The position numbers were made by a program, and so were the translations under genes. Below the pieces are notes generated by a model that did no database searches, was not told where the DNA came from, and saw only the letters and a program-made list of their open reading frames with translations. Below are positions 1-45,475 of a stretch of 56,871 bases of DNA, piece after piece. The stretch's first letter is position 1; each line of letters starts with the position of its first letter. The stretch comes from Prorocentrum cordatum (taxonomy: Eukaryota): positions 62,001 through 118,871 of the forward strand of contig CAUYUJ010000060.1 in the NCBI GenBank assembly GCA_963575745.1, in the 5' to 3' direction.

Positions 1-1003
1 GAGGCCCGGTGGTAAAGAAAACCCCTTTGAAGTCTCTGGAACTCCTTCATGGCAGCCTCGAGGGACTCCGCCCGTCCCGTGTCACACCTCAAAGAGTCCA
101 TCATGGCCGAACGGTTCCATGTCAGCTGAGGCGGCTGCGTCGGGGGGTCGCCTCCCCCCTTCCAGAACGGGAGCTCCAGGTGGATGGGAAGCTTGTCCTT
201 GGGAGCGGGGCCTCTGTACGCTTGTAGCTTTGCACCGAATCCCAAGAGCGGCCGAAAACGCGTGACCTTGTTGATGAACCCCCTGGGGTACGCGATGTAG
301 TCAATACGAGCCCCAGAACCACTAGAAGTAGGCGAGAAGAAAGTCGGGATGGGTTTCATGGTGAGGGTATTACCTGCCACCAATTGGTGGGCTTCCAGCA
401 CCTCCCGAAACAGATGTCCTGCGCCTCGGCGCAGTCGTTCTCTGGAAGGGCATCCGACCGCAAGAGAAGACAGTACGTGCCCACCGTCCTGGCCCCACGA
501 TTCTCCTATGCCGTCGCTCAGGTCTGTGAAGACGAACGGTATGCATCTGCACGGCAATGTCGAGAGGACGTCGCCAAGCCAATTCGATAACAATTCTACT
601 ACGCAAAAATACCCACTACGTGCCGCACGAACAGGTTGAGGGGGTAATCTATTGAAATCAAGCACACGTCCACGGTTCCGCTCTTACTGCGCACTGCGAT
701 ACACCACCCTCTCGCCCCAGCAGGGCTGGGCCACACACGTTTGAGATTCGACTCCGTCACCCACGACTGCAATACGACCGAGCACCCACAACTCCGATTC
801 GAGAAAGCCTCCGAGGTGGCGGGCGCCTCCAAGACAAGACGTCCAAGGACTCGACGACGAAGGACCTTCTGTTCCGCCAGCCTGCTAGAGCACTGGGTCC
901 CTGCGAGGAGAATGAAATCGTAGTTGCCCGTCTCGGCCACGATTTCCTCCAACCCTGCCCCCGTCGCTGCTAACGGGTTGAACCCCAGAGTACGCAAGGT
1001 CAT
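1..1003 (-). mobile_element. Degenerate LINE fragment (AP-endonuclease domain), running off the window edge
   Basis: The minus-strand translation from 1003 has EN-like motifs in order: LRTLGFNP (TWN-like), DFILLAGTQ (LQET-like), SCGCSVVL (GVAIL-like), ISIDYP (SxYAP-like). After a frameshift near 620 it reads PFVFTDLSDG (GDFN-like). Confidence 0.55.
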
Positions 1004-1062
1004 TGCTGCAAGACACCAATCGCCCCCTGACGGACGAACAAAAAATTGGACCAGGGGGGCTG

Positions 1063-1416
1063 GAGGAGGAGGAGGAGGAGGAGGAGGAGGAGGAGGAGGA
1101 GGAGGAGGAGGAGGATGAGGAGAAGGGGGAGGGTAGGGGAGAGGAGTGGGAGGAGGATGGGGAGGGGGAGGAGGTGGATGAAGATGAGGGGAGAAGAGTA
1201 GGAGGAGGAGGGAGGAGGAGAGGAGGAGGAGAGGAGGAGGAGGAGAGGAGGAGAGAGGATGAGGAGCAGGAGAGGAGGAGAGAGGAGGAGGGGGAGGGAG
1301 GAGGAGGAGGAGGAGGAGGAGGAGAGGGAGGAGGAGGAGGAGGGGGGAGGGGAAGGGGGAGGAGGGGAAGGAGGTGGAGGAAGGGGAGGAGGTGGAGTTG
1401 CAGGAGAGGAGGAGGG
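1063..1416. repeat. (GGA)n purine microsatellite; representative of many (GGA/CCT)n tracts in the window
   Basis: Seen directly. Similar tracts lie at about 19180, 20360, 21380, 23640, 24120, 27430, 29220, 29660, 30880, 38490, 47550, 52490, 53320, 54560, 55410 and 56760. Confidence 0.95.
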
Positions 1417-1600
1417 CAAGCAGGGTGTTTCTCGGCACGGGTCTCCGCTGTGTGCTGCAGTTTTCTCCTCCGGGCCTCGGTTCTGATCTTCTGCGCGAGG
1501 GCGCGCTCGGCGTGGCCCGAGAGCCTCCTGAGGTTGCCCTCCAGCTCGTCCACGGCGCGGCTCTCCATGTCAGCCTCGTGCTCCATGGAATCGAGGACCT

Positions 1601-1740
1601 TCAAAGGGGCCAAAGGGACACACATAGACATACACACAAACACAAGGATTTTCCATATCTTTCCATATATGTTCTCGGTTTTCGGTTTCCCCCCCGATAT
1701 CCATATTTTCCCAGAGTTTCCGGGGGATCGACAATTAAGC
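1601..1740 (+). repeat. Dispersed repeat end (AAAGGGGCC...GGGACACAC family)
   Basis: Homologous to 2781-2872 (inverted) and 32448-32575 (direct). Shared text includes gggacacac, tacacacaaa and ccatat...ccatatgttct. Confidence 0.7.
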
Positions 1741-2680
1741 GTGTCTGTGTGTGTGTGTGTTCTCCCCTTCTGAACCTTCTCTTTCTATTATTACAATTCT
1801 TTTTCAAAATGAACAGACGTAAACTTTCGCAGGTGGAACAAATAAGACTGAGGCCTTTGGTAATTTTCGGCCTCTGAGGGCCCTCGCCCTGTCCCGGGAC
1901 TGCCAAGAGCAACTCGGGAGGGAAATCAGGTCCAAGGGGAGGGGTCCAGACCCCTGGGGAGCCACGTTCTGAATACCCATCGGTCGGAAGCAGTGGGTAG
2001 AAACACGAAGTAGGAAGGCGTTGGAAGTAGTTTCGGTTGCCGCCCGCCCCCTAAAGATGAAGGGGAAGGGAAAGACGCTCGTTGATTGAAATAGGAAGGC
2101 GCCTAAAGTAGATTGGGATCTGGGAAATGCAATAACACCCACTTTCAACGATCGATGGTTAAACGTGAACTTTCGGATGCGCATGCGGATTTATCAGGCT
2201 GGTCTGTCCCCTGGCGCGCGGAGCCCGCCAAGGGTGACGCTGGAGGAGCCGCCGGAGGCGCCGCCACGCACTGCCAGGGGTAGACAAACGCCGTCGCAAG
2301 AATTCCGCGCTGGCCCGCGGAAGTCTTCGGCGCTTCAGTTTTCGGCGCTTCTCGTTAAGCCAGGCCGCCCAACTTCGAGCACCTTGCCATCGCTCGGACG
2401 TCCATTCCCCGTGCATGCGTCGGTGTCGTGCGCGTCTTTTTTGGGGGGGAAACCGAGAGGGTACGGATACCGCTACTCCCCAGACCTCTCCTTGGATGCG
2501 TTCTGACCAGGACTTCGAGGCGAATCCAGCGGTGGCGACGAGGGCCTCCCAGGTGGCCCCAAAAAGGGGAGAACGGAGGAAGGGCAGAGGCATGGGTGCC
2601 TTTTCCTCCTCTGACTTTTTGCCAGATGATCCAGGGGATGCTCCTCGATGGGCATCGCCAAGACACAAACAAAAACGACC

Positions 2681-2780
2681 NNNNNNNNNNNNNNNNNNNN
2701 NNNNNNNNNNNNNNNNNNNNNNNNNNNNNNNNNNNNNNNNNNNNNNNNNNNNNNNNNNNNNNNNNNNNNNNNNNNNNNNN
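2681..2780. other. Assembly gap (100 N)
   Basis: Run of N. Confidence 1.
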
Positions 2781-3203
2781 GGGGGGAAGACAAACACCCA
2801 GAAAATGTGGGAAAACATGGGGGATATTTTCATTTGTGTGTATTTATTCGTGTGTCCCAGGGCCCCTTTGTAAAGGGAGGTTTGTCCACCGCCGGAAGGA
2901 GCCCGCGGCTGCGCTCGCTCCGGGGCCGACCGCCGATCTGTCTCGGCGACGTGTACCGCCGGTGCCGGCTCGACGGTTCCCTCCCGAGCTGGTCCTCCCC
3001 CCCCCCCCCGCATGCAGTGGGGGCCCATGCCAAGAAGCACCCTGCTTGCCTCCACAGGGTGCCCTGGGTTTCTTGGGTTTCGATGGTTTTGCGACGGAAA
3101 GCGCGCCGCTCCCACACCCAACAGCAGTGGACGCCCTGGGGTCTCAGGCTTGTGTTTTTCTTGTGGAAGGTTTCTTGTGGACGTGTCTCCATTGTAATTA
3201 ACG

Positions 3204-3373
3204 TTAAGCCGGGCGTGTCCCTCTACAGGAGGATCTTGGACGAAAACCAAATGATAGTCAACAAGTAGTCTGGGGACGATGTTTCTATTATTTTTTGGCC
3301 ATGTTTGAGCACTGTTTGGCTATATTGTATTTTTTGTCCAAAATCTGCCTGTAGGGGGACATGCCCGACCTAA
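3204..3373. mobile_element. MITE family A copy (~27-bp TIR TTAAGTCGGGCATGTCCCTCTACAGG)
   Basis: Reads ttaagccgggcgtgtccctctacagg ... cctgtagggggacatgcccgacctaa. The 8-bp flanks aattaacg and ccctaacg partly match. A more damaged copy follows at about 3383-3678, and a solo end lies at 4512-4541. Confidence 0.75.
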
Positions 3374-4045
3374 CCCTAACGTTCAGGTCCCTCTACAGGA
3401 TGGATATTTGACGATTTTTCCATGATCTTTTGACCATTTTGGAACACTGTTTGATTACACATGGTTCATTTCTCATTATTCGGAAGCTCTTTGATTTTTT
3501 TGGGGGCCAAGATCCTTTCATTTCTAATTGCTCTATCCTGGGCCTCTCCCTGGCCACTGGGGGGTCAGGAACAATGAGAAACGAGCGCACTTAGAAATGA
3601 GCACGATTAGAAATGAACGACGTGCATATTTTGTTGTTCGTCCAGAAGCCGCGTGTAAGGGGACATGCCCGGCCTGACCCGAACGTTCCCCTCACGCTGC
3701 AGTCGGCCCAGCTTAGTAGGTCGGCCCTGCCAACTCAGGGGTATACCCTTGTGCCCTGTGCCTCGCGACCCGTGCTTCCCACATTCCTGCGGCAATGTGG
3801 CCCCCGGACGGGTCTTGTGTCCTCTCGCGTGTCCTGTCCAATCGAGTCCGACTGGTAACGCTCCCCGCACGCTCCAGTTTTCGGGGACTCGGGGCAGTCC
3901 TCGGAGCACGCCTCGGGCGGCTCCGACCTCCGGGACCTCCTCCTCCCCGTGCTGCCCCTCGCCGGCCCTGCCCCTGCACCGGCGGCGTGGCTCGGCAGCG
4001 GCTCGGGGGCCCCCCAAACGGGGTGGCGACCACAGCGTGCGGTGA

Positions 4046-4241
4046 TCGGGGAACAGAAAGTGACGTAAGCGTGAAAACTCAGAGGTCCGCGCAGATTTCT
4101 CGGATCGGCGCTGGGGCCCCCCCGGCGGCGCCTCCGTCGCCGCCCCCGCTCCGCGCGCCAGGGAGGGGGGTCCAGCGCCGATCCGAGAAATCCGCGCGGA
4201 CCTCTGAGTTTTTTATGTTTATGTGACTTTTTGTTCCCCTA
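4046..4241. mobile_element. MITE family B copy (~75-bp TIR, 5-bp TSD GGTGA)
   Basis: The left arm tcggggaacagaaagtgac...gaggtccgcgcagatttctcggatcggcgctgg is inverted to ccagcgccgatccgagaaatccgcgcggacctc...gactttttgttccccta. GGTGA occurs at 4041-4045 and 4242-4246. Confidence 0.85.
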
Positions 4242-5261
4242 GGTGAGTCGGTGGGGATGCGGGGTCACCGCGCGGTTTTGGGACTAGGGTCGTTCTCCGA
4301 GGACATCTCGAGCGGCAGGCGCCTCCAGGGTCCAAAGACCGTGCGGTGACGGACTGTGTGGTGAGGTCTCGGGGAATTTCGAGGTCACCGCACGGCCTGT
4401 CACCGCACCGTCTCGGGACTCCAGAGTGGCTCGGGGGGTGCCCGCCCATGCTCTTGGAGCTGCCAGCCGGTGCTCGCCTCTGCCGTCGAAGATGGGAGAT
4501 CGGCATAAACATTGAGTCGGGCATGTTCCTCTACAGGAGGAATATTCATATATATATATTAATTATATATATATATATCATATATGTATCATTGTTAAAA
4601 CGTAATATATATATACATGTATATATATTCCTTTATCCTATAAAATCACATCCGGAAACCCGCCCGGCAAATCCACAGCGGCCGGACCACGCCATCATAG
4701 TACCCCACAAAGGCGCACGAAGAGCCCAAAATGCCTCAAGAGGCCCCCGCTCCCTCTGCCAGACGCCTTCAAGTGGTCTTTTGGACCGGCCCCAAATGCA
4801 TCCAAAACCTTTTACGATGGCCTCATGGTGGCCCAAGACGCCCCCAAACAGCTTCAGAGCCTCCCCAAAACGGTCCCAACAAGGCCCCCGCACGGCCGCA
4901 GAGCCCTCCTAGACGTCCAAGATCGCCTCACAGCACGGCCGCAGAGCCCTCCTAGACGTCCAAGATCGCCGCACAAGCGGCTTCGAAGCGCCTTAAGACA
5001 GCCCCCCAATCCGAACCGAAGTCCTCCCTAAAGATCTCGACGGCGTCAGACGGGCCAGGAGCGCTTAAGCATGGTTCCAGAGGCCCCCAAGAGCCCCCCA
5101 AACGCCCCCAGCGGACCGAGGAGACTCTCAAGATCGCTGCAAGAGGCCCCCAGCACACTGTCAAGAAACCCCAAGCGTGCCAGAAAACTTTCCCAGAGCG
5201 CCATCCTCCTCCTTCTTCTCTTTCCCAACAGTTCCTCCGGGATTTCTTCAACAGCTGGGAG

Positions 5262-5770
5262 AGTCCGCAGCCCCGTCTCAAGGACGACGTTCTGTCAAAG
5301 AGTACACACGGCCACCCCCGTTCCTCTCATGTCTGCTCTGTTCTGTCTAAGCCGCATCGAGTCTAAGCGTGCGCGAGTGTGACTGCGAGCGCCCATCCGT
5401 GGATCTGGCTGCCCTACCCCTTTGTGAACGTTGTCTGGGTGTGGCCACGAACATGTCCAGGCGGGCCACGATGTATCGCGGACGCTTCTACAAAACTCCC
5501 AGCGGGCCCCCAAGGGTAAGATCCAATGCTTTTCCTTAGCTACTCATGTGATTCTCTCATTCTCGTCTTTCGGACTCCAGAGCGTCCCAGACAGACCACG
5601 AGGCCTCTATACGGCCCGACGAGGGCGCAAGAGAGCGCCCCGTCTCCAAGACGCAGCCCCGTCAAGGATTCCACGCGGCCACACATGTGCACACATGTCT
5701 GCATTGTTCTGTCTCAGCCGCATTCAGTCCACGCGTACGTGAGTTTCAATACGAGTGCTTCTGAGTGGAT
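5262..5770 (+). repeat. Diverged direct repeat (~370-bp period) in the Helitron 5' region
   Basis: 5262-5405 resembles 5632-5773 (gccccgtctc...cggccac...catgtctgc.tgttctgtct.agccgcat...gtggatctg). A 38-bp direct repeat also lies at 4890-4970. Confidence 0.75.
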
Positions 5771-5911
5771 CTGTCGCTCTTGGCCTCAGTGATTGTCGTT
5801 CGGAGTGGCGCAGCCCCAGTAGGAGTTACACACAGCGGTCCAGACCCCGTGCTGACACTACTCCACACAACAGCGCAGGTGTCTGCTCCCTACCCCTACC
5901 CACCTCTCTTT

Positions 5912-5932
5912 CAGTACCCATTTAGGCTCAAT
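5912..5932 (+). promoter_or_regulatory. Relict dinoflagellate spliced leader upstream of RepHel
   Basis: cagtacccatttaggctcaat matches DinoSL ccgtagccattttggctcaag at 17/21 and ends 11 nt before the ATG at 5944. Confidence 0.55.
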
Positions 5933-5943
5933 CGTTCAGCGTT

Positions 5944-8311
5944 ATGTTTGCCCGGTTGCCGTGGCGCCACGTGGCTGCGTCCACGGCGGTTGCAAGCGTC
6001 GCTGTGAGTCATAACGACTCCCCGAGCCGCACTCCGCCTGTCATCGCTGCGCGGACCGGGCTTTGGACATTACGCCATGCCCGATTCCTGACGCAACCAT
6101 CCCTGGTTTTGTGCAGCCCGAAGGCCGCAACACTGCAATGTTCTGCGTGCCAACAGCACTTGCCTCGAACAGATTTCAGCGACAACCAAAGACCCAGATC
6201 CACAAGGAAGTGCCACGCTTGCGCCGCCGGCGCTAACCCCTCCGACCCTCACACCACATTCTCTTGCGCTGCTTGCGGTGACGTCCTCCCCCGGGATAGT
6301 TTCAGCACCAGGCAACGCCATGAGAAAACAAAAGTGTGCATCCAATGCATCGGTCGCGCTCATCCTCCTCGGTCGTCTACAGCTTACCAGTGCGCCAGCT
6401 GCAAAGCCACGAAGTCCGTGGATGCGTTCGTTCCTCGAGGCGTCCCTGGACCAGACCCTGTCTGCACTGACTGCACAGCGGGCGGCCGTTACACGGCGGC
6501 TTGCGCAAAATGCGGCCTCGTCCTCCCTCTGGACGACTTTGGCAATCATCAGCGCGAACATCTACTTGGAGTGTGCCGGTCCTGCGCCGAGCCTGGCAGA
6601 CCTTCTACCCAAATACATTCACTTTCCCTGGGCGCTCTCGCCAACCCTTGCGAACATTGCGGGGCACCACGCTTCCAGCGAGAAGTTCGAGGCTTCTGCT
6701 GTGCACAAGGAAAGTACGCCATTGACTTCTCGCAGTACTACCAGCAGCCAGGCGATGCCCTTCTGCAGCTGTACAGACGCACCTGGCCTGTGAAGACTAC
6801 GCACGGGAACCTCGTCCACGACGACGCCACGAATGCGCCCAAGCTTACGGGCTTCACTGCGGATTCTCGCCGCTACAACAGCCTGCTCAGCCTCGCCGCC
6901 CACGAGGTCCAGAGCGCCACACCAGAACGAGAAGTTCGATTCGGGGGCGTCCTCCGACCATCGTTCATCCGCATTCACGGCACCATGTACAGGAAGGTGT
7001 ACTCGGCTGCCGACTCTGGGCCAGTCCGCTACCTCGTGGTCGACGACCGTGAGCGTCGCACGTGCGCCCGAGACCACGGCCTCGACCTCTCCATCGTGTC
7101 CCAACTGGAGAAGCTCATCATACCGCACAATACACACATGCAGCACGTTCAGCACCTCAAATCAGTTTGGCCCCGTGCCTCTGAGGCTTCCGTCAGTCTC
7201 CGGTGGGACGAAGGTGTGCAAGAAGTTGCCGCAGTAGTGCAACAACGCCCCGACGCCATCGCCGAACCCAGGGCAGTGCGCTTCCGTTTGACGCCAGGCG
7301 CTCGCCCACAATACCTCTCGCCCTTGCACTGCCTTTACGAGCCTCTGAGCTACCCGCTGTGGTTCCCCTACGGAGGCCGCGGGTGGAGCACCGACGCCGT
7401 GTCAACTTCGGGCAACCGCGTGACGCAGATGTGGTGGTACCGCCAGCACCTCCTCCGGCAACCCCACATGCACGCGTGCGGGCGTCTGTTGAACGACTGG
7501 CTGATCAACATGTACTGCCGAATGGAGGACGAGAGGCTGTCGTTGGTCCGGAGGGAGCAAAGCACCCGCATTGCCAGCCGAAAGGATTTGTGCGAGGCCT
7601 TGGCCAACGAACATATCCCCCCCAGCGCAATCGGCACCAAGTACTACCTCCCTTCCACTGTCCCCGGCTCTCCACGCCATCTGAAACGACTCCGAGTGGA
7701 CGCATTGGAACTGGCACGCCGCAAGGGACCCCCTACTTACTTCATAACCCTTACCTGCAACCCCCACTGGCCAGAGATCCGAGAGGCACTCTCCCCTGGA
7801 CAAACCGCCGCCGACCGCCCTGACATCGCAGTGCGTGTCTTTCACGGACGTCTGGAAAAGATGATGGGCTACCTGAAGTCAGAGTTTTGCGGCCAACGTC
7901 GGTACGTCATTCGCGTGATCGAGTACCAGAAGCGAGGCCTGCCGCACGCGCACATCGTTCTCGCATGCACCCATCCCCCACCTACAGCCGAAGACGTGGA
8001 CGCCGTGATTTCCTGCGAGGTTCCGCCCGAACCTGGCAAGCTTCGTGACCTGGTCTTGCTCCACATGGTCCACCGCTGCAACCACTCCTGCCACCCTGAC
8101 GACCCAGCGCAGGAATGCGTCAAAGGGTGCCCTTGGCCTTTCAAGGACGACACTGACTTCGACGTTCGAGGGTGCCCCCACCACCGACGCCGCTCCTGCG
8201 GCCACACGTGCCCGAACTGCGTGCAAAACGCTCCTGCGTACGGGCGCCGGAATGTGTGCTGCAACCGGCTCGTCGTCGAGTACTGCCCCCGCATACTCTT
8301 GCTTTGGGAAG
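5944..8311 (+). CDS. Helitron RepHel exon 1: tandem zinc fingers and HUH Rep motifs 1-2
   Basis: Four CxxC-x20-CxxC units start at 6139, 6265, 6391 and 6502. Also present: Helitron-type CEHC...CCAQGK (6649), YEPLSYPLWFPYG, PGSPR, motif 1 YFITLTCNPHWPEI (7738), motif 2 VIEYQKRGLPHAHIVL (HUH at 7945-7953) and HMVH. Confidence 0.93.
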
Positions 8312-8727
8312 GACCGGCGGAACACCTCTCCGCGCAAAGTTCCTCATCCACTTACTCGCGCCCGCGAGCACCTTCCCCGCATTTCCCCACCTCTTTTCCG
8401 CAGACTTCCACTTCTCCCAATTCCTGCCCCCATGGGTCCCCCAATGTATGTTTTCATACATTATCAGCAAAAAACGCATGCCAAAAAAACTGCTTCCGAA
8501 GGGACATTTTTTGACACCCCATTTCCAAGCCCGCGCCTCCGCAAAACGTACGTTTTCGGCAGTCGAGGGACGCCCTGGAAGTCGGATTTGTAGTGCTTCC
8601 CCACCCATGGTTTTCTTCTTCCCTACTCCTTTTGGACCGTACGTTTCCCTAGTCCCTCCCTCTTCTTTTTCCCCCCTTAACCCGTCATGTCCACCTCCTT
8701 CCCGATGCGGAGAGGTGTTCGGCCAAG
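8312..8727 (+). other. 416-nt GA-AG intron with terminal inverted repeats (introner-like)
   Basis: Junctions are GAAG|GACC...CCAAG|GACAC. Removal joins LLLWEG to HANVKF and restores the frame. AAGGAC is repeated at 8309-8314 and 8725-8730. The 18-bp TIR (8316-8333 and 8707-8724) matches at 17/18. Confidence 0.85.
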
Positions 8728-11122
8728 GACACGCGAATGTAAAATTCGCAGGCAACGTGAACCTCTTCGAATACCTGTACAAGTACATCTTCAAAGGCCC
8801 AGACCACACCCAAAACCATATATCTGACGCCACGACAGACGAAATCACAGACTGGCAACGTGGACGGTATTTATGTGCAACAGAGTGTGCCTGGCGTATT
8901 TTCGGATACCAGACCTACGAACGCGCCCCCCACGTCATCTGCCTACCAGTGCACCTCCCCGGCGACGATTGGGTAACCTTTGCTGACGGCGGCGAGGCGG
9001 ACGCGCTCCAGACTACCGTTTCCCCTCTACAACGCTACTTTTTCCGGCCCACCGCTCCGCCTTTCAACGACCTGCTTTGCCACGAATACTTCGAATCCTT
9101 CATGGTCGCCAAGACGTGCCCGATTAGCCTCCGATGTTTCTTCCCGGACCTCTTCCCGGATGCGGCTCAACGACCTCGGGGCCCGGCAACTTTCACATTG
9201 GAGTGCCGGGTTCGTGGAGCCTTGCGCACATTCCACGTGCCGCCCGTCCTCGACGCAGCTCCAGGAGGCAACCAATTCTTTGTCTACTTGAAGCAGAAAG
9301 GCGAACATCCAGTTTGCCGCTTAGAGATGAAGTTTCCCCGCCAGAAAGATGTATTTTTCTTGCGCCACATGTTGCTCAACTACCCCAAGCGCAGTTTCGA
9401 GGAATGCAAGACTCACGCTGGACATAGATACCGATCTTATGAAGAGGCAATGATTGCTACGGGGCTTTTCACCCACGAAGACGAAACCTCTCGAGTAATG
9501 GACGAGCTGGTCTCGCTCCGATACACGGCCTCCCAACTACGGTTCGCTTTCGTCGTCCTCCTCGAGCAGGACGCCAAGCCCCGCACGCTGTACGAGAAGT
9601 ACGAGACACACTTGATGAAAGATTTCCTCGACAGGGGTCTCTCCAAGGACACCGCCCGCCAGGAGCTACAGCGAACGCTCAAAGCATCCTGGCTGGCCCA
9701 AGGCAACACTGAGGAAGCCTGGGTTCTACACTCCCCCGCTCACCCCACCACTGCCCGCGGCGCGCCCGTGCCCGACTTCACCCATTGCACCCCAGCAACA
9801 GCGGCATCAGAAGCCAACAGACTGTGGAACCTGATCAAACGAGACCCGGATCAGTCCGGGGCCGCCAAAGACGTCATCGACGGCGTGCGTTCTGGCGCGT
9901 CCAAGCTCATTTTCTGCCAGGGTCGAGCCGGCTGCGGCAAATCCACCCTCGCCAAGTACATCTCCTACTACGTGCGGTCCCTCGGCAAAAGCTGCGTCAA
10001 CGTGGCTTCAACGGGCATAGCGGCCTTAAACTTGCCAGATGGGGCCACCGCGCACTCGACTTTCAAGATCCCGATAGAAGACGCAGAGCACCTCACCTGC
10101 CGCCTGGGGCACTCCTCCGCGGGCGCCCTCACCATCGCGGCCGCTGCCGTCATTCAGTGGGACGAGTGGCCATCTTGCAAACGCGCTGCCTGGGATGCGG
10201 TCCTCGACTACCTCGCGCTCCTGCAGCAGGCTCGGCCAGACATTTACGTCCCAAAAGTCATCATCACCTACGGGGACTTCCGCCAGATACCGCCTGTTCT
10301 GAAGCACGCGTCTAGACAGGATGTCCGCGCCGCCAGCGTCACAACGTCGGCTTCGTGGCCCTCCTTCCGCACTTGGCAACTCCGCACCACGCACCGACAA
10401 ATCCACGACAGTGACTACGCTTCATGGATCGAACGCATCGGCCAGGGCGAGGTTCCGCACACGCACACCATTGATGGCGAACCCGGCTATATCGAGCTCG
10501 ACCGCTGCTCCGTGACCCACACCATGGACGACGCCATCACTCATTGCTTCCCACACATAAACGACCCCGCCGAGTGCGCCGATCGGAAGATTCTGACAGC
10601 AACGATTGAGGCGAGAAACACCTTTAACGACCGTATCCTGGATACTCTGACGCGCACTTATCTGCTGCACGAGTTCATCGCCAAAAGCTCGGACGCCATT
10701 GAATACGACTCCAACAACGACACCGTCGAAGATCACATCACCGCCGAGTTCCTCAACCTGCAGGACGAGAACGGAGTCCCCCCACACGCTCTCCGGCTCG
10801 TTGTTGGCGGCCTCTACGAGCTGATGAGAAACTTCAGTCCGTGTGATCGCTTGATGAACCACACGCACGTCGTGCTCAAATCGGTCTACGAGAAACACGT
10901 CCTCGTGGAGCGGCTCGATGGGGAGCAGTTTCCCTTGCCCAGATCTGCTTCCGCTGGGCACTGGGGCGGGGGGCCACCACCATCCGCCGACGACAGTACC
11001 CTGTGCGTCCAGCGTACGCTTCGACGTTCAACGGCTCGCAAGGCACCACGCTGGCCCGCTGCGTGGTCGACGTCCGCAGAAGCCCGTTTTCCCACGGCCA
11101 TCTCTACGTAGCTTTTTTTTTT

Positions 11123-11153
<31 letters not shown>

Positions 11154-11426
11154 GTGTTTTTTTTTTTTTTTTTTTGTTCTCTTTTTTTTTTTTTTTTGTT
11201 TTTTTTTATTTTTTTTTTTTGGAGCCGGGAGGTGGAGACTCGAACGACCATCCGCATCTTCACACTGCCGGAACGCTGCAGCACTGCTGGCAAAGCCCTC
11301 ACCAAAAACGTGGTGTGGCCTGAGTTCTTGCTCAACGATTCTGCCCCATCGGTTGCCCGGAAACGACCGGCGGCGAGTTCCCGCGACCAGCCTGTTAGCA
11401 GCAAGCGCGGGGCCCGACGCCGCTAG
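8728..11426 (+). CDS. Helitron RepHel exon 2: Rep motif 3 and Pif1-like SF1B helicase; frameshift near 10942 and T-tract at 11113-11220
   Basis: Motifs: YLYKYIFKG (8772), GRYLCATECAWRIFG, Walker A GRAGCGKST (9921), VASTGIAA...GATAHSTFKIP, WDE, GDFRQIPPV, PPHALRL. After a 1-nt frameshift it reads RRRQYPVRPAYASTFNGSQG...FSHGHLYVA. After the T-tract it reads SR...TKNVVWPEFL to the stop at 11424-11426. Confidence 0.9.
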
Positions 11427-11681
11427 GATGCCTTCTTCCTCCCTTGCCTTCGCGTGGGCGCAAAAACAGACCATCGCCGTTCCTCCGTCGTCGCCCTCCC
11501 TCCTCTCTCCCCCCGCGTGCCGCCGCCCCGCCAGCCCTGTCGGCCCGCCAGCTTGCGGGGCCATTTCAATTCTCTCGTTGCCGCCACGCAGTGAGCATTT
11601 CGGCTGCCAGGCTCCGCCGAGCGTTCGTCTTTTCCTACACTTCTCGCACGTTGGGCCCCCTTCCCTCCCACCTGCGCCGCG

Positions 11682-12530
11682 ATGCCTACCGTCTTCGCCA
11701 AGCCCGCTGCCGCCCCCAGCGTCATGCGCAGGCCAGCTGGCAACGCGGTCCTCGACACGTCCGTGCCGGTGCGCGCGCAGCCCGACGTTGGGGACCGCAT
11801 CCGCGCGTCCCTGTACACGGTGAACGTCACGATCGAGATGGTCGACACGCCGACGAAGGCCAACGCGGGTTCTCGCCTCGCGCTGTCCGACGGCATCAGC
11901 ATGCGCAGCGGGGCCCCCGCCAACCGCCACGGCCTCACCACTACAGTGAAGAGGGCCACCGACCTGCTGAAGTTGAACCAGCCACCCAACGGAGTATGCG
12001 TTTCCGCTGAAGGGCTCCAGCCACCGCAGGCCGGGCATAACCCTACCTCCGGGAGGAGTTGGGCCTGGGTGGTGGCCGCCTATGGCGACAGCGCCAGAGC
12101 CGCCTCCCTCGCCACGGAGTACGTGGCGACCCGCGCCGTCGACATCATCACCCACTGCTTCTTGAAGGCCGACCTCCACGTCCCGGCGACTGACACCCAG
12201 TGCGCCTGGTCCGCCAAGTCCACGCTGCTGAACAATCGGGTGTCCATCCGCCGCACGGGCTCCATGACGAATGGCCAGACGTACGAGCTCAACGACCTGA
12301 TCAATTTCGTCTACACGATCCACCCGAACGTCCCGCCCAAGGTGGCCCGCGCACTCAAGGACTTCTTCGACGCGTACCCGTCCATCATCACGGAGGGTGC
12401 AGGCCCGGCCCTCGTAGGCCCCGCCTCCACGACCGTGCACCACAGCACTTCCGCTGCGGCCGCAGCGCCGAAGCGCGGGGTGAAGCGGCCCCCGGCGCCC
12501 AGCGCGGCGAAGAAGGCCAAGAAGCGCTGA
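11682..12530 (+). CDS. Helitron cargo ORF, 282 aa, unknown function, basic NLS-like C-terminus
   Basis: ATG-started intact ORF with visibly G/C-ending codons and non-repetitive protein sequence. It ends PKRGVKRPPAPSAAKKAKKR and lies 255 nt downstream of RepHel on the same strand. Confidence 0.75.
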   Translation: MPTVFAKPAAAPSVMRRPAGNAVLDTSVPVRAQPDVGDRIRASLYTVNVTIEMVDTPTKANAGSRLALSDGISMRSGAPANRHGLTTTVKRATDLLKLNQPPNGVCVSAEGLQPPQAGHNPTSGRSWAWVVAAYGDSARAASLATEYVATRAVDIITHCFLKADLHVPATDTQCAWSAKSTLLNNRVSIRRTGSMTNGQTYELNDLINFVYTIHPNVPPKVARALKDFFDAYPSIITEGAGPALVGPASTTVHHSTSAAAAAPKRGVKRPPAPSAAKKAKKR

Positions 12531-12634: not shown

Positions 12635-12920
12635 CCCGCTCGAAAACCTTGCCCCCGCGTCGCGGCCCATTACGGTTCTGCCGCGCGCCCGCTGGCACTT
12701 CTTTGCTTCGCGATTCCCTTATTCAGCAGACTTCCACGTTTTGCAAATCTACGCCCCTGGGTTCGCCCAGTGTATTTTTCCATATATTCGCAGCCAAAAA
12801 CCGAGTGTCAAAAAATCGGGCCCCCAAGGCGTATTTCTTGACATCCCGGTTTCGCACCCGCGCCTCAGCGAAACGGACATTTTGTGCCCCCCAACGATAC
12901 CGTGGATGTCTGATTTAAAC
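12635..12920 (+). repeat. Diverged paralog of the RepHel intron interior
   Basis: Shares colinear blocks with 8314-8590: cgcgcccgc..gcac, gcagacttccac, tgggt.c.ccca.tgtat, caaaaaa, ttgaca.ccc, cccgcgcctc.gc.aaacg.ac.ttt, gtc.gattt. Confidence 0.75.
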
Positions 12921-15858
12921 CGTGCTTCATATTTGATCATCCCCTTCACGACTCATATTTCGGCCCCGCCTTTTCTTCTGATATTTTTGTTTGTTTTTTC
13001 TTTTTTTTATTTGGTCTCTTATGTTGTTTTCTTTTTTGGTTTTGTATTCGGTTTTTTTTGTTTGTTTCCGTCATTATGAGGCCTGTTTAGTTCTTACTTC
13101 TCTCTTCTTGGGGGTGTTTTTTTGTTTTTTTCTGCTGAGCCTCGTCTCTGCTTTTGGTGTCTTTCAGCGGAAGACGGCGTCGACCTCAGAAGGGAATCAT
13201 CGCCGGTCGTCCTTCGTCCGTCGTCGTCTCCCTGTCCCTGGCCCTGTCATCCCCTTCCGGGGCATACGGCCTCGCGCATCCACAACCGTCCGCTAACATC
13301 CTGCCGCTCCAGAGGCAACCGTGCGAACGGTTTCATCCGTATCCCACCTCTTCTTCTTCGTCGTCCTCACCCTCTACCTCCTTCCCCTGCCTCCACCTCA
13401 TGCCCCCTCCTCTTCCTCGTGCCTCCTCTTCCTCCCGCCACCTCCAACTCCTCCTGTCACCTCCGCTGTTTCTTGCTGCGTTTCCACTTGCGTCAACCAG
13501 CCAGATCTTTCTCCCCGGACCCGCCCCCCAGGCCCCCATGAGAGCCCACAGGACCCCAAAGGACAACACAGGACTTCACAGGTTGCCACCGCACGCAACA
13601 AGCTTTTCAGTGGGTTGTCTTCCGATTCGGCAAGACCGCGCGTCCCCTTACAAAATATCGCCGGGCATGTACTTCTCTTCTGCCCTTGACACCCCCGCCT
13701 CCTTCAATCACTTGCGTGTAATCAAAGCGCATCGTACACTAACGATCCACCCGGAAGCGTCATTGCCTCTTCGCCTTCTCGCCAATATTTTCGACGGCTT
13801 TTCTCGCTCGGCCGTCACGTTTTGCCGAGATCGGTCTTCCGCGCCAAGCAACACCCCCGCACATTATGCGTTGAATCCCCGCCTCCGTCAGACAGGATCG
13901 GAATGCGCCCAGAGCTATTGCATCCTTTCGGTGTGCCCTACTCGCACACCGCCCTTTAGACCCCACGAGCATTGCATCCATACCGCAAGTCTGGCTTGCG
14001 CATGTCGAATGTTCTTGAAGTGGCTTCCGCCATTCCGCCGCCCCCCAGAAGAACTTCCGACCATCGTGGAAGATGCATGCTGGCCATCGGCCCCGCCCGC
14101 CATTGTGCCTGGGCTGTGGGAGATACCACGTTGGGGCATACAAGAGTCGTTGTAGATGCCTTTCAAGGCCCTCTGGAGGACGCTAGGGAACATCTGGATA
14201 ACGCTTATGAGAGTTATTCCAGGTCCCTGGAGGCCTCTTCCGGCACCTCGATACCTTCTTGAGGTCCTTCGGGGCGCCTCCGGGGCCTCTGCAAGGCTCG
14301 AGGACCCGTTTTAGGACAGATAGCTCCTCATGTGAAGTCGTCTTCTTCTCTTTCGCCCCTCTAGCATCCTCTTGGGCCGCTTTGGGATATTTGGACATCT
14401 CTAGAGCTCCTCTTCGACCCCCAAAAAGGGATGCAATACACTGCAGGGACGCCCACTCATCTCACACACCTTTGCGCACCTACCCAGCAGAGTTGAGCGG
14501 ATCTCACACACATTCCGAATGTGACTCCGGAGCCATCTGGGTCGAGCGTTTCAGCCCCTGTCTCCTTCCATCATCTTTCGCATTTCGACCTGCTGTGCCA
14601 TCGAGCGCTTTGCGCAAGCCCTCCGCCACCCCATCACATTGCGTCTGGCACTCGAGAAGAACCCTAAAGACCCCTACCAGCCTAACGATCCCGTCAGGAC
14701 CTCGCACCATGTTACAGAACCACACAACAAAAACACTTCTCACTGGAACATCAAAACCCCACACGCCCCACAGCACTCTACAGGGCCCCTCTGGACCTCC
14801 CAGGCTCCAATCGGAGAACACAAGACCCTTCAAGCCTTCCAGGCCCCGACAAGCTCACCGTACTTCCCAATACCCACACACACCTTTCGCACCCTACGGG
14901 ACGCCACAGGACCGCATAGGACAACAATGATTCCAAAGCACCCCAATATTACCTGACGCCCCACCGGACCTCACTGAACCGTGTGCCCCATCACAGGCAT
15001 CAAAAACCCAACGCGCGTCCACATGATCTCATCACGCCACGCGGGAGACCGCAGGACCGAACACGACTGCAGAACCCAAACGTGCCCACATAGAACACCA
15101 AGGTGCCCCCCAGAACACCAACGATCACCCACAAAACTAGACCCCGCCAGACCCCACCGAAGTTTCAGTCCCGACGAATCCCACAAAAGCCGACAGGATT
15201 CCGTAAGACCCCAGAACCTCGACGCGACCACAAAAACACCAAGGTCGCCCCCACGACATTTCAAACCTACATCTTGCAAAGCTTCCGAAGTCCACACAGG
15301 ACCACGCAGCCGAAGTGAGAACCCGGCGAACTCAAGACCCCCAAAACCGAGAATGCACCCGACTATACCCAATAAGACCTTTCCGGACCCCACAGACCCC
15401 GCACACCTTTTCGCGGAGCAGATGTTTCTCCACTGGCGGCCACGCCGTCACGAGACAACACCATCTCTTATATACTTTAGGGCGCTGCCTCTGGGTGCGT
15501 GGAGTCGTGCCTCTCAGCCCCTGTCTCCTCATCCGCGTTGTTACCTCCACTTCCTCCATATCGGCTCTCCGCTGTACCATCCAGACTGTTAGGTCACCTC
15601 CTCCGCCGTAATCCCACCCTGTCCTTTCGTTGCTCTCCCTCTCTTTATCTTCCACCCTCTGCTCACTTCTCTCCGTCATCGCCGCTCCGCGCACCTACCC
15701 CCTACACCACGCGCCTCTTGCACTTCACCCCGCTCCCTTCCCATAATCGAACAATCCTCTCCCGTCCTTCCTTCTCCCGCGTCTGCTACGCTCCTTCTCC
15801 TACTGTTTCGCACGCCTGTGGCCCTTCTTCGGGTTGGCGACGATCCCATTCGACAGCG

Positions 15859-34047: not shown

Positions 34048-37000
34048 GAAACGCGGCAGGAGCTTTGCAGCAGCGCCAAAGCCGATACATCCGACTGGAC
34101 CGTCTCAGCTGCGACCTTCTCTTCATTGCAGACTTTTGCTCGTACCTTCGATGTGGGTGACGCGACGGATGAAGTCAACATTTCCATTGATGCCGCCTCT
34201 TCGCCTTCCTACCCACACGGGTCCAGCCAAGCATACCTCCCGGGCAAGGGCAAAGTTACCGACACCGGGTGTGTTGCCACAGATATAGCCTCGAGTATGG
34301 AAATTTGTCGACCTCAGCCCGTTGATGCAGAAGACCATCCAAGTACACGTACATATAGACAATATAACCGCCCTGTTGGTAGTACGAGCTTGGGCAAAGA
34401 TACCTTCGTGCAGCCATCGGCGGAAATCTACCCGCTTTCGGGGATATCTACATCATCGTACTCACCACCAATTGTTCCCATCAAAGCTACCGCTACCGGT
34501 CAACTTTGCGCAGGCGTTGGGTTCTCCGATGTCTCACATTCTTCTTCGGTTTCCCCTTCCTCCTCCACATGGCACCGACATCGTCGACTCTGCACACCAG
34601 GTCGCGTCCGACGTGTGGCGACTTGGAACGTCGAGGGCTTGCGCGGCGACTCGTTGGTCAAGCTAGAAGAGCTCCTGCACGCGATGCGCAACAACAACAA
34701 CATTGACATCCTACGTCTTCAGGAGACGCATTTGCATGGGGCTGAGTATTAAAGTAAGCATAATTATAAGTTGTTCTTCTCTGGCAATCTTGATGCGCGA
34801 AACCGCACGTACGCTGGGGTCGGTTTCTTGGTGGGACCTTCAGTGGTGAGCTCTGTGATCGCTTTCATAGCGCCTGGCGACCAGATCGCCACGCTGCGCG
34901 TCAAGATCTCCGGAGGGGTGCTAACATTCATCAGTGCATATGCGCCGCACTCCGGGCTCGAGTACGAAGTGCGGCAAGGTTTTCACACGAAGCTGCAATC
35001 TGCAATCCGAGCTACAACCGCGCACAGTGCCACATATATCCTCGGCGACTTCAACGCGCAACTTCTGCGAGTGGGACCGGGGGAGGACAATACTATCGGG
35101 CAGCATGTGTTCAATACTCAACCAAGGGATGTTACTAACGACCCTGCCAGAAATCAGGGGCACACGATATCAAACAGGCAGTTGCTGGTGGAAACATGTA
35201 GTTCGTACGACTTGGTTGTAGCAAATGCGTTTTTTGATCACCCAAACTGCATGAAGATCACATGCCCGAACATTGGGATCAACCCCATGGACCCCGACAT
35301 CTCTACAGCAAGGTTTTCGCAGATCGATCATGTACTGTGCCACCGCAGCATGTTGTCTACGATTCAAGATTGTTGGACTGCGCGGGAGGTGTCCTTGAAC
35401 ACCCGTCATTTTCTGACAGTCGCAACAATCAGCATCGAGTTCGAGAGGCAACAGGGGCCTCGTCAACGCCAACGCTACATCGACAAGACCTCCCTGATGG
35501 ACGAGAAGGTTCAGGCGAAGTTCATTGGAGAATTGATTGAAACCGCGATGGGAAAGCCTTATACAGAGGACTTGGACAGCGCAGCCGAGAATTTACAGCA
35601 TGCTGTCTCCTGTGCTGCTGCCACACTGCCGGACAGAGATATTCGAGCCAGACGGCCCTGGACCAGCCAAAGAACATTGGATTTGATTCAAGCGCGGTCG
35701 CTTTACCGACAGCGCGGAGACCATGACAACAAGCGACGACTACACAAAAAGATACGGAAATCTGGGAATCAAGACCAGGAGACATGGCTAAATAATCTTG
35801 CGGCGGGTGGTGGTTGGGACGCAGTGAGATATTTACGGAATCCGTCAAAAGTGCAGCACGCAAGCATACAACACCCAAATGGCAATGTATCAGACACTTC
35901 TGAAAGACCGGATGTCTTGGCAGATTACTTTGAATCAACACAATGGGAATACAAATTTTCCGATCACCGCCCAGACAACCAAGCGCAACATGGCGACAAA
36001 CTTCCAATCGACATGGGGGCATTCACCTTGAACGAGTTCCAGAACGTGATCCGCAAGCCGAAGAAGGGCAAAGCAGCTGGACCTGACGACATTCCCCCTG
36101 ATGTTGGGAAGGTTTTGGCTTCCGACGAAGCGGCCAGCGACATACTCTTCAACATTTGTCAACAATGCTGGGTGCAAAAAGCAATCCCTGAATTTTGGAA
36201 GAGAGCAAACCTTGTACTGCTCTTCAAAAAGGGTAACGCCGCTTTGCCAGAGAACTACAGACCAATATCGCTATTGTCCGTGGGGTACAAGGTACTAGCA
36301 TCAATACTACACGACCGTTTGGTTCAAGGAGGTGCAAAAACACGAATAAGAGACTCGCAATTTGGGTTCCGGCCGCGCCGTGGCCCAGGCGACGCTCTCA
36401 TGCTAACGCGCCGGATGATCGATGCGGCCCACTTGCACGTCAATGGTGGTCTGATTTTACTTTTGTTGGATTGGGCGAAAGCCTTGGATATATCAAAACC
36501 AGGCTGTATGTGTGATGCCCTCGAACGCTTCGGCCTGCCAAGTGGTATGGTGGAAATAGTACGCTCGACTCCGCAAAATTTTCACAATCGAAGATCATGC
36601 AGGCCGCTTTTCTGAATGACGACAACGCGCCGGGATCGCCAAAGGCTGGCCGCTCTCGCGGCACTTGTTCATCATCGTACAAACTGTAATGTTGCATGAT
36701 GTGTATGGCACTCTTGAACTACTCCCAGAGCCTGATGTTGTGATTACACGTGATATTCTGTACGCTGATGATACATTGTTGATGTCTCATCATTGTTCCA
36801 ACCTGCAGCAAATCCTGGCAACAATAGTGGAGGAAGGTCGGAAATATGGCCTGGAACTTAATTGGGAAAAGACCGTACAAATACACATATCCACAGACCA
36901 GGCAATAACATCACGAAGTGGTGAGCACATAAAGGCAGTGAGGGACGCTATGTATTTGGGCGGTCTTATTTCGTGCGATGGGAAAGTGGCAACTGAATTA

Positions 37001-37467
37001 AACAGGCGACCTGGGGAAGCGAACCGTATCTTCAAGCAGTTGCATCGGATATGGAGCCGGACTTCAATTGGAAAGAAACGAAAAAAAATATATATGTATG
37101 AAAGTTGTGTCCTGAACAAGCTCCTGTACTCTTTAGATTATGTTTGGCTTCTGAAGGCAGACCGTGCGCGTTTAGACGCCTTCCACTGCAAATGCTTACG
37201 TCGTTTGCTGGGAGTTCGTCCTTCTTTTCACGGGTTAGCAATGCAGTTGTGCTTCAAAAAGCATCCGCTCAACCTCTGTCGAATATGTTGCTGGCCAGGC
37301 AAGTTGCATCGTACAATAAAATTATGAATTCGGGATGCCCGGCGCTTGTCAAAGCCGCTGTCTGTAATGATGATGGAACCCCCAAGAGATGAGCTCGGCG
37401 CCGAAAGAGGGGCCGCCCCCGCCAGCAGTGGGCGAGTCAGGTATACAAGTTGTCTCAGCATGTATAG
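34048..37467 (+). pseudogene. LINE ORF2 (AP endonuclease plus reverse transcriptase) with stops and frameshifts
   Basis: EN motifs: VATWNVEG, LQETH, SAYAPH, LGDFNA, QIDHVL. RT motifs: KAAGPDDI, NYRPISLLS, QFGFRP, LLDWAKALD, GIAKGWPLS, YADD (36761), YLGG, and C-terminal RGRPRQQW. Stops at 34750 and 36617; frameshifts near 36575, 37225 and 37390. Confidence 0.92.
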
Positions 37468-42600: not shown

Positions 42601-45475
42601 CCATCGCGATCAGGCGCTCGCTCCCGGGCTCACCCCGCGGCCGAGCGCGTCGCGCGCCAGAGTGCCAGGGCGCGCTTCGTCGGATTCCACGGCGAGGCCC
42701 ACTGGAACACAATCTCAGCGAAGCGCCTGGGGTGACGGCCCCCACCGCCACCCCCTCCTCGGATCCAACTTCGCGCTCAAGCAGCGCAGCCTGCGCCTCT
42801 TGAAGCCTCGCATGAGACTGTCCAATCCGCCGCGGGCCCGCGCCCGCGCGGCCGACGATCGGCTCAGAAATTCCGGCGGCGGCGGCCTCGATCAGCCCCC
42901 CCCGCGACCCCCCCCCCGCCCGGGCGCCAGACGCCCCCGCCGACGTAGCTGCAGGGCAGCAGTTGAGCCCGCCGCACAGCGCCCGCGTTATGGGCTAGGT
43001 CCCGGGCACGCAACACATTGCGGGCATGCCCCGCGGCGAGGATCACAATGTCCTTGCCCTGGTCCCACTGCCCGTAGAACGGCTTGAACTCGATGCGGCC
43101 GCCCTCCAAGCACCTCTGGAGAGCGTCGCGGTATTCCGCGCCCTCGAAGACGAAAGGCGGGAACTTCTGGCCATCGACGCGCGTTGATTCCCCCGCTTGC
43201 ACGCGCACCTCAGAATCGCATGGTCGCCCAGCTGTGTCGCGCCAAAAGCGACCGCGTCATGCACCACCCGCGCGCCCCGTTCAGCACCCGCAGCACATGG
43301 GACTCCACTGGGGCAAAGTACTCGTCGATACGTCGTGGAGCTCCATGGTTTAATTTGAAATTATTCGGGGGCAGCAAGCCGACCCCTATCATGCGGGCGC
43401 TGCCGAACAGCTCCCGCCAGAAAGGCCCGGGACGATTGGCCCTCCCTGCGTCGAACCGCTGCGCTTGTCTGGGAACTGGGCACAGAAGAGACTCCGACGG
43501 TGCATCGCTCACGTTGAAGTCGCCAGCTGCTAACAACGCATTTCGTGATGGATCCCTGTGGCTCCATGTTGCGATATCCATCCAAGCCCGTCGAATGCCC
43601 CCCCTCGCCCCACTCGCAAGTTCACAGCGAGGTATACTAAGAATCTGAAACGCACATTTTGAAGGCGCATGCTCGATCGCGGCAATCGTGGCTCGGACTC
43701 TCTCTGGAGTGCGATGTCTGAAGAGCGGGGGCGCCTCCTCACCACCAGCAGCCGTCGTGCGATCGCCGAGCCATGGGGTGAGAATGGCGACGCCCCGAGC
43801 GCCGGGTCTGTCGGCGGTAGACAGGCGCGCCTTGAAGTTAATTTTCCATTGGGGAAGATAGCCGCGCACAGCCGCCTCGTATCATAAGGATGCACGATAA
43901 GGACGCAAGGGCCTCGGAAGAAGGTTTCGACATTTTGCGACCAGGGCGCGACCAGCGAAAGAGGCCAAGGATGGGCCGATGGGGGGAAGGATGCAAGGGT
44001 ACCCTTGGGAAGGTTGCCCATCCTTACTATCCGAGTTGACTGTAGTTTTCCTTCGAAGCCGTGGACCTCTTGCACCAGTGCGACGCGCCGTTGTCTGAGA
44101 AGCTCCGCCACCAGATTGACATGTTGCCTCCTCCCGCTTGCGTCTCGCCTGATGAGAATGCCTTGCGCATTCCAAGTCACGACCCCGATGTTCTGCGAGC
44201 TGGCCCGAAGCCCCCACGGCGCCCACCGCTGATTTTGGAAAGCGTCCACGTCGATGTGTCTACCTCTCGCCAGAGATCCTGGAACTGCCTTGATATGGAC
44301 CGCCTGTCGGTCTCGAAATATTGAACTACCCGATGCCACTTTGGATGGTCCGTCTGGACCCTGGACCTGCACTTCCACGAACTCGGACCCATCGCCGAAG
44401 ACCAACCGATTGCCTTGCGGGCCCAACATTCTTGTGGCGGAACCGCAGCACGAACCAACCCAAAAAGCCACAGCGCATGTCCTTCCCACTCTTGCCACTG
44501 TTGGTTTTTTTGCGCCTACGCCACATTTTTCCACCTGGAGGCTCGAAAGCCGTCTGAAGGCGCGCCAGCGCGAACCACGTCAGCTGCTCCACCAGGACAG
44601 TATAACTAATACTTGTTTGAAGGCTCTCACCGATGAGATTGACGTCCTTGTTGGAAACATTGGCGGCCGCCACGACAATCGAAATTACAATGTTTGAAGG
44701 ATTTCACCGATGAGATTGACGTTCTCGTTGGAAACATTGGCGGCCAGCGGCCCCTCTTCCGGCGCGGCGGGAACCCCACGTGGCGCCGCAGGGGCGTCGC
44801 AGCAGAGGACGAACAATGCAGGGTCGGTGGGACGGCTCCATTCCACCAACTTGGACGGGCCGATGGCGCCAGCCTCGGAAATGGCGCCCGGCTCCGAGCG
44901 CACCGGCACCATGGTGGACTCGAACGTGGTCTTGCTGTACTGGTGCATGTTGAGCTAAAAGGCGGACATGTGCCGCCCGACCGCAGCGTCTGCATGAGCG
45001 TGATGTCCTCCAGCGGCGGATCTTTCGGCGGCAGCAGGGCGAGTGTCACCTCCTCTGCCTGGGGCGCGCCATGGGTCACGCCCCATGCAGCTCATCAGTG
45101 CAATTCTGAAGGCGCCTGCCACGCGCTCACTCACCGCTGCGAATCTTCTTCCCGTGGTCGCCCTCCTCGCCGTCGCCGCCAGGACCAGGATCCGCAGCAG
45201 CGCGGCCGCGCGGGGCCACTTCGGAGAGCCAACGCGCGACGTGATGAAAAATACGCCCGCTGGCCCGCAAAACGCCAGAAAGCCTCAAAGACGTTACGTG
45301 TGGGGCCGGGAGGGACCGCTCCTGAACAACGGTCGCCGCAGCTCTTCGAGTTGCGTGGTGTCCTCACACGCCTACGGATTGGGGACACAGCTTGGTTCTA
45401 CCCCCAGAAAGCCTCAAAGAAGACGATGCCCGCTCGCACGTGTGCCGTTACAAGCTTCAGCCAAAATGGCAACGG
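39630..45475 (-). mobile_element. Highly degenerate, apparently full-length LINE (EN plus RT) beginning at a spliced-leader relic
   Basis: Minus-strand motifs in order: VTWNAQG (~44175), VQEVHG (~44065), GVAIL, AGDFNV (~43515), RRIDEY, GDHA, IRPLARGN (~42220), QIGFAPGR (~42125), DAEAAFPS (~41990), SGVPGGRPLSG, CADD (~41735), KYFG (~40680). The 3' boundary is approximate, and a non-LINE insert lies at about 40850-41720. Confidence 0.8.
45455..45475 (-). promoter_or_regulatory. Dinoflagellate spliced-leader relic
   Basis: Minus-strand ccgttgccattttggctgaag matches DinoSL ccgtagccattttggctcaag at 19/21. Confidence 0.85.

Follow-up and report, generated by a model that had tools for sequence, protein, structure and literature searches.

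The transposase gene of a Helitron in the dinoflagellate Prorocentrum cordatum is interrupted by a small inverted-repeat element with the outward form of an intron. The gene lies in a stretch of 56,871 nucleotides (contig CAUYUJ010000060.1, positions 62,001 to 118,871 of the forward strand), in the following called the window, to which all coordinates refer. With a probability of about one half, the insert is an introner-type miniature inverted-repeat transposable element (MITE) that would be spliced out when the gene is transcribed. The anatomy of the element, the precise recovery of the reading frame when it is removed, the taxon and the rarity of spliceable target sites are observed; that splicing takes place is what we infer from them. 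In the proposed course of events, a non-autonomous transposon of 410 bp, with terminal inverted repeats (TIRs) of 18 nt and a target-site duplication (TSD) of 6 bp, would have inserted into the Rep coding sequence, in a Helitron lineage belonging to P. cordatum or to a species close to it. Through its duplication, AAGGAC would bracket the insert as AG/GA...AG/GA (slashes mark the exon-intron boundaries), a form accepted by dinoflagellate spliceosomes and one that the published introners of dinoflagellates make out of their target duplications. If this copy is transcribed, the insert would be removed, at least partly, as a phase-1 GA-AG intron, and the Rep sequence would be restored exactly. 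Elements of this kind are already known, in P. cordatum itself. What is unusual is the host gene, a Helitron transposase.

The insert and its parts are located as follows.

8315 to 8724, no strand assigned: non-autonomous TIR element (MITE), 410 bp, 64% C+T
8309 to 8314, no strand assigned: first copy of the TSD, AAGGAC, containing the AG that ends the exon and the GA donor
8725 to 8730, no strand assigned: second copy of the TSD, AAGGAC, containing the AG acceptor and the G that starts the next exon
8316 to 8333, forward strand: left TIR, 18 nt
8707 to 8724, reverse strand: right TIR, 18 nt
8312 to 8727, forward strand: putative intron with GA...AG ends, measuring 416 nt in the window as against 417 nt in the assemblies built from reads

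The two TIRs (8316-8333 and 8707-8724) are complementary at 17 of 18 positions (94%), and their pattern has exactly two matches in the window, in inverted orientation, where 0.21 would be expected by chance (at most three mismatches). The 410-bp element combines TIRs, a TSD, a small size and the lack of a transposase gene, as is typical of MITEs. It also has the characteristics by which introners are recognized, namely TIRs at both ends of the insert and a TSD that overlaps the exon-intron boundaries and supplies the G[TCA]...AG dinucleotides. The 6-bp repeat allows seven registers for the insert, and only that of 8312-8727 has both an initial G and a terminal AG; there the boundaries read AG/GA...AG/G. 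The preliminary description of this DNA had derived both splice sites from the target duplication, and this part of it stands: AAGGAC is present twice, the TIRs match at 17 of 18 positions and a single register is usable. A search for TIR and TSD combinations over the whole window returned this element and one low-complexity artefact, and nothing else.

Removal of the insert restores an open reading frame (ORF). The frame 1 ORF at 5926..8514 and the frame 3 ORF at 8157..11111 are fused in frame once the 416 nt are excised, and excision of 8312-8727 in silico yields an ORF of 1589 amino acids with no internal stops. In both the minimum free energy fold and the centroid fold of the insert the TIRs are paired, bringing the two splice boundaries together. 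The fold energy itself is unremarkable (z = -1.58; 7 of 100 shuffled sequences fold equally well or better).

The interrupted gene consists of two parts.

5926 to 8311, forward strand, frame 1: N-terminal part of the Helitron Rep, with an Stc1-type zinc finger and a Helitron_like_N domain
8728 to 11113, forward strand, frame 3 to 10937 and then frame 2: remainder of Rep and a PIF1-type helicase

The first part matches the Pfam families PF14214 (Helitron_like_N, E=4.6e-43) and PF12898 (E=3.2e-11), and the second matches PF05970 (PIF1 helicase, E=1.8e-42). The fusion of a Rep domain carrying HUH and two-tyrosine motifs to a PIF1-type helicase identifies the gene as that of a Helitron. The helicase half shares 99% identity with a protein named Prorocentrum cordatum. 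Helraiser (PDB 7lcc, chain 7lcc_A) aligns to the first half over residues 430-684 (E=3.5e-37) and to the second half from residue 713 onward (E=2.1e-12), and it has the HUH motif, the two-tyrosine motif and the PIF1-type helicase in the same order. In contrast to Helraiser, the Helitron in the window carries an Stc1-type zinc finger at the N terminus, is followed by a companion ORF and has a Rep domain that is interrupted by a TIR element. The insert lies within the Rep domain, between the H-A-H codons of the HUH motif (7945-7953) and the tyrosine codons of the two-tyrosine motif (8772-8774 and 8784-8786), which align to Y727 and Y731 of Helraiser. We take these aligned tyrosines to be the catalytic ones. 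The insertion site is immediately upstream of a conserved His-x-Asn-Val strand, 14 residues ahead of the first tyrosine. That a conserved Rep segment is split here, as had been claimed, is borne out by related proteins. Among the best 12 of 100 sister proteins returned by the search, all with identities of 56-76% and each predicted from a metagenome contig as one uninterrupted ORF, 11 continue across the junction and the twelfth ends short of the site. Since these 11 ORFs are gap-free at the junction, the sisters lack the insert.

An element of this type yields a spliceable insert only at certain target sites. Every 6-nt site of the reconstructed Helitron ORF was combined with the element's own ends, and G[ACT]...AG boundaries result at 179 of 4761 sites (3.8%) in the orientation of the element and at 129 of 4761 (2.7%) in the opposite orientation. 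GT-AG boundaries would be obtained at 0.3% of the sites in this ORF, and across the whole window the spliceable fraction is 5.7%. As the element is the only clean TIR and TSD combination in the window, it represents one case out of one and not a pick among many. This favours, though it proves neither, a preference of the element for proto-splice sites or selection for spliceability. Two ORFs with 99% identity to proteins named Prorocentrum cordatum, together with a relic of the dinoflagellate spliced leader, assign the window to P. cordatum or a species very near to it, which makes GA donors plausible. With only 3.8% of the targets spliceable, and with GA donors and introners both described for this dinoflagellate, an introner-like reading of the insert is reasonable.

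The published introners provide a frame for comparison, here based on parts of the respective papers. Roy et al. (bioRxiv 10.1101/2020.10.14.339549) describe introner-like elements of dinoflagellates that have TIRs and duplicate their targets. According to the sections drawn on here, both splice sites of Polarella glacialis classes 12-14 derive from an AGGH duplication, and dinoflagellate introns of recent gain show an enrichment of GA donors. In Amoebophrya, introners are characterized by inverted repeats of 8-20 nt and direct repeats of 3-5 nt at the intron ends (Farhat et al., PMC7789003). Dougan et al. (PMC10666404) applied this definition to P. cordatum, found introners in 2.4% of introns and adapted the gene-prediction tools to accept GA donors. 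More generally, introners derive from many classes of transposons (Gozashti et al. 2025, PMC12130899). Two general statements of the preliminary description are thereby confirmed from the literature, again from the parts cited: GA donors are published for dinoflagellates and for the P. cordatum annotation (Roy et al.; Dougan et al., PMC10666404), and introner elements with TIRs and TSDs are published for the group, including P. cordatum (Roy et al.; Farhat et al.; Dougan et al.).

The insert resembles the Polarella classes 12-14, as described there, in that a transposon insertion with an AGGH duplication provides the 3' AG and the 5' GH, that the donor is GA, and that the exonic AG before and GH after the intron stem from the duplication. 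It differs in the length of the duplication, 6 nt (AAGGAC) as against 3, 4, 5 or 8 nt in the classes described, and in being a single element known from sequence alone, with the transposase of another transposon as its host gene. With the introners of Amoebophrya and P. cordatum, as defined in the passages used, it shares inverted end repeats within the range of 8-20 nt, a direct repeat overlapping the boundaries and a predicted hairpin joining the intron ends, and Dougan et al. worked on this species or one close to it. However, those introners were defined on RNA-supported or annotated introns, whereas the insert in the window is not annotated as an intron, and its direct repeat measures 6 nt instead of 3-5 nt. 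Many of the Amoebophrya elements, in the description available, are without canonical dinucleotides, in contrast to the GA-AG of the present insert.

Assembled contigs from four read sets (X1, X2, X4 and X6; four studies, with reads of DNA or of unknown kind) give information on the length of the insert and on its distribution. Two homopolymer runs are of importance for the length.

8469 to 8474, forward strand: run of six A (A6) in the window, seven (A7) in the contigs of X1, X2 and X4
10938 to 10940, forward strand: run of three C in the window, one C fewer than in X1, X2 and part of X4

The additional A is present in all contigs that cover position 8468, with depths of 20.5/20.5 in X1, 2.8/2.8 in X2 and 2.4/2.4 in X4. 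The additional C has depths of 30.1/30.1 in X1, 4.94/4.94 in X2 and 2.3/7.4 in X4. Its loss constitutes a -1 frameshift in the helicase of the window that is absent from homologous proteins. As two homopolymer deletions of one sort, both have the look of assembly consensus errors, and they are probably errors of the window's assembly. With the additional A, the insert measures 417 nt, is in frame and free of stops, and the ORF can be read without interruption from 5926 across the insert. The stop at 8512-8514 is then lost, and so is a truncated protein made of the zinc finger and the HUH domain. The insert had been presented as not a multiple of three, which is correct for the 416 nt of the window and not for the 417 nt of the three read-based assemblies (3/3). 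Likewise, the statement that unspliced RNA stops at 8514 applies to frame 1 of the window and fails with the A7 of all contigs covering 8468. Unspliced mRNA with the 417-nt insert would yield the full-length protein with an insertion of 139 residues. Shuffled versions of the insert are free of stops in 235 of 5000 cases when dinucleotides are preserved and in 57 of 5000 when mononucleotides are, to be multiplied by a further 1/3 because the length must also be divisible by three. The stop-free state is thus uncommon, not extreme. Two of the six frames of the element are stop-free, and open frames are likely in it because of its C+T content of 64%. In a wider sense, the case calls for caution, since homopolymer errors in assemblies can produce or erase the very reading-frame features from which a function is then argued.

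As regards distribution, the insert is covered in X1 by one contig of 1280 nt (8251-9529) at a depth of 20.5, while the depths of the flanks sum to 41-45. This spanning contig is the only one in X1 that matches the insert at 85% likeness or more. The depth of the insert being below that of its flanks, other members of the Helitron family do not align within it. A second version of the left flank, which differs at 8293, 8295 and 8299, crosses the left junction into the TIR as far as 8335. In X4 (record 22) it shows 8 differences over 405 nt, followed by 19 letters that are similar to, yet different from, the element of the window, and in X1 it occurs alongside the main version at a depth of 7.63/28.2. 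The insertion is thus common to at least two copies that are about 2% apart, and the Helitron was copied after the arrival of the element, by transposition or by segmental duplication. The possibility that the insert is private to this copy, which had been named as one that would speak for a plain inactivating MITE, is thus realized in part: the distant sisters lack the insert, but a second copy, diverged by about 2%, has it. Among the 40 differences listed out of 618, 39 are coding, 23 of these are synonymous and 22 fall at third positions. This substitution pattern shows coding constraint across the family as a whole, not assignable to the insert-bearing copies.

The downstream part of the Helitron bears on the condition of this copy.

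11114 to 11219, forward strand: T-rich low-complexity block, 106 nt, not a multiple of three
11595 to 12530, forward strand: companion ORF downstream of the helicase, 311 codons, with a G+C content of 0.86 at third codon positions

The T-rich block separates HGHLYVA from the remainder of helicase motif VI, while one X4 contig (at 11089) is continuous across motif VI without the block. The window copy is damaged in this motif. That the block might be a further intron was considered as well, but the homologous sequence is not restored by any G[TCA]...AG register, and this reading was rejected. The companion ORF (11595-12527) has no Pfam family and matches, at 99% identity, a second protein named Prorocentrum cordatum, of 282 residues. 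Three gene models, P0131, P0132 and P0138 (P0138 with an identity of only 43%), fuse it to the helicase, and it has the appearance of a companion gene that is conserved in this Helitron family. The annotated P. cordatum models P0131, P0132, P0138 and P0142 start at about 9381-9498, just before the helicase. In P0142 a protein kinase domain precedes the helicase.

Several results weigh against a spliced introner. No contig in X1, X2, X4 or X6 contains the joint 8311>8728. The X1 contigs do contain joints 7958>8730 and 8018>8766, which may be diverged sisters without the insert. The four annotated models all exclude Rep together with the insert, and a target frequency of 3.8% could still be due to chance. 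Furthermore, neither the window nor the metagenome loci searched contained another full copy of the element, so that these searches do not show it to belong to an intron-generating family. The open frame of the element has no hit (phmmer) among 1.84 billion protein representatives. The TIR pattern gave two single matches in viral contigs and at least 120 loci in metagenome contigs, and the 122 loci from these scans, when searched, contained neither a match to the element longer than 25 nt nor paired TIRs. Short and unpaired as they are, these matches are to be regarded as chance matches. With Rfam at gathering thresholds, no match was obtained over the whole window. There is one further, diverged copy of the core.

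12722 to 12928, forward strand: second copy of the element core, 70.7% identical over 208 nt, TIRs not recognizable

It lies about 190 nt past the stop of the companion ORF. As a diverged, dispersed copy without TIRs, it indicates that the core of the element is an older dispersed repeat. The mismatches between the two copies are distributed over the codon positions as 27/69, 20/68 and 14/68, and no third-position bias is significant.

On these grounds, it could be imagined that the insert is a plain MITE that is never spliced and that is neutral or inactivating in one decaying sub-lineage of the Helitron, its AGGA being a coincidence. We regard this as a substantial possibility, to be placed below even odds. 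All 11 distant sisters that span the site are without the insert, a multi-copy intron-forming family did not appear in the searches made, and motif VI of the window copy contains the T-rich block. The gene models of near-identical copies leave out Rep, and a coincidence of 3.8% is not negligible. On the other hand, the boundaries match the dinoflagellate rule AG/GH...AG/GH exactly, introner elements are common in P. cordatum, the read-supported ORF is otherwise open from 5926 to the T-rich block, and the insertion is shared by two copies about 2% apart, all of which speaks against a plain MITE.

The open frame of the 417-nt insert brings in another interpretation, in which the element is simply read through and forms a Pro/Ser-rich loop of 139 residues in Rep. 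The length of 417 nt in all three read-based assemblies that cover 8468, the continuity of the frame through the insert and the low fraction of stop-free shuffles would be in accordance with it. Yet the site directly precedes the His-x-Asn-Val strand, 14 residues from the first tyrosine, where nothing suggests that a loop is tolerated. The C+T-rich composition favours open frames in any case, as the two stop-free frames of six illustrate, and the comparison with the second core copy reveals no significant third-position bias. A translated insertion is therefore improbable. The preliminary description had gone in a different direction and proposed that regulated splicing controls the output of transposase, the unspliced RNA giving rise to a repressor isoform composed of zinc finger and HUH domain. 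Frame 1 of the window does stop at 8512-8514, and an Stc1 zinc finger and the HUH motif are encoded upstream of this stop. However, the stop requires A6, which is seen in no read-based assembly, and the truncated isoform is contradicted by all three of them. The T-rich block also interrupts helicase motif VI, so that the window copy is defective beyond the insert, which speaks against splicing as the gate of transposase production in this copy, and distant sister Helitrons work without such an insert. Of all the explanations considered, this one has the least to commend it and is very improbable.

Elsewhere in the window, other traces of mobile elements are found. An ORF with a reverse-transcriptase domain (PF00078) extends over 34753-37324 on the forward strand in two frames, with a break at about 36612-36620, and is, to judge from its sequence, another mobile element with a frame break. 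A relic of the dinoflagellate spliced leader is located at 45455-45475 on the reverse strand, with two mismatches and none expected by chance. The spliced-leader motif is confirmed in print (Dougan et al., PMC10666404, in the part cited). The relic suggests a retroposed transcript nearby. Finally, an assembly gap of 100 N occupies positions 2681-2780.

Going one step beyond the spliced introner, it could be speculated that an introner-type MITE has colonized a Helitron transposase and travels with it, given that the insertion is shared by at least two copies about 2% apart. With a length of 417 nt and no stop in the insert, spliced and unspliced mRNA would both be in frame. This extended scenario is unlikely as a whole. 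If it were true, one mobile element would make itself harmless to another through splicing, and the introner would be spread by the Helitron as its vehicle. Should the insert be spliced, such insertions would be neutralized in the genes of other transposons too, beyond those of the host. Such nested cases would then represent natural tests of the requirements of the dinoflagellate spliceosome, free of host selection.

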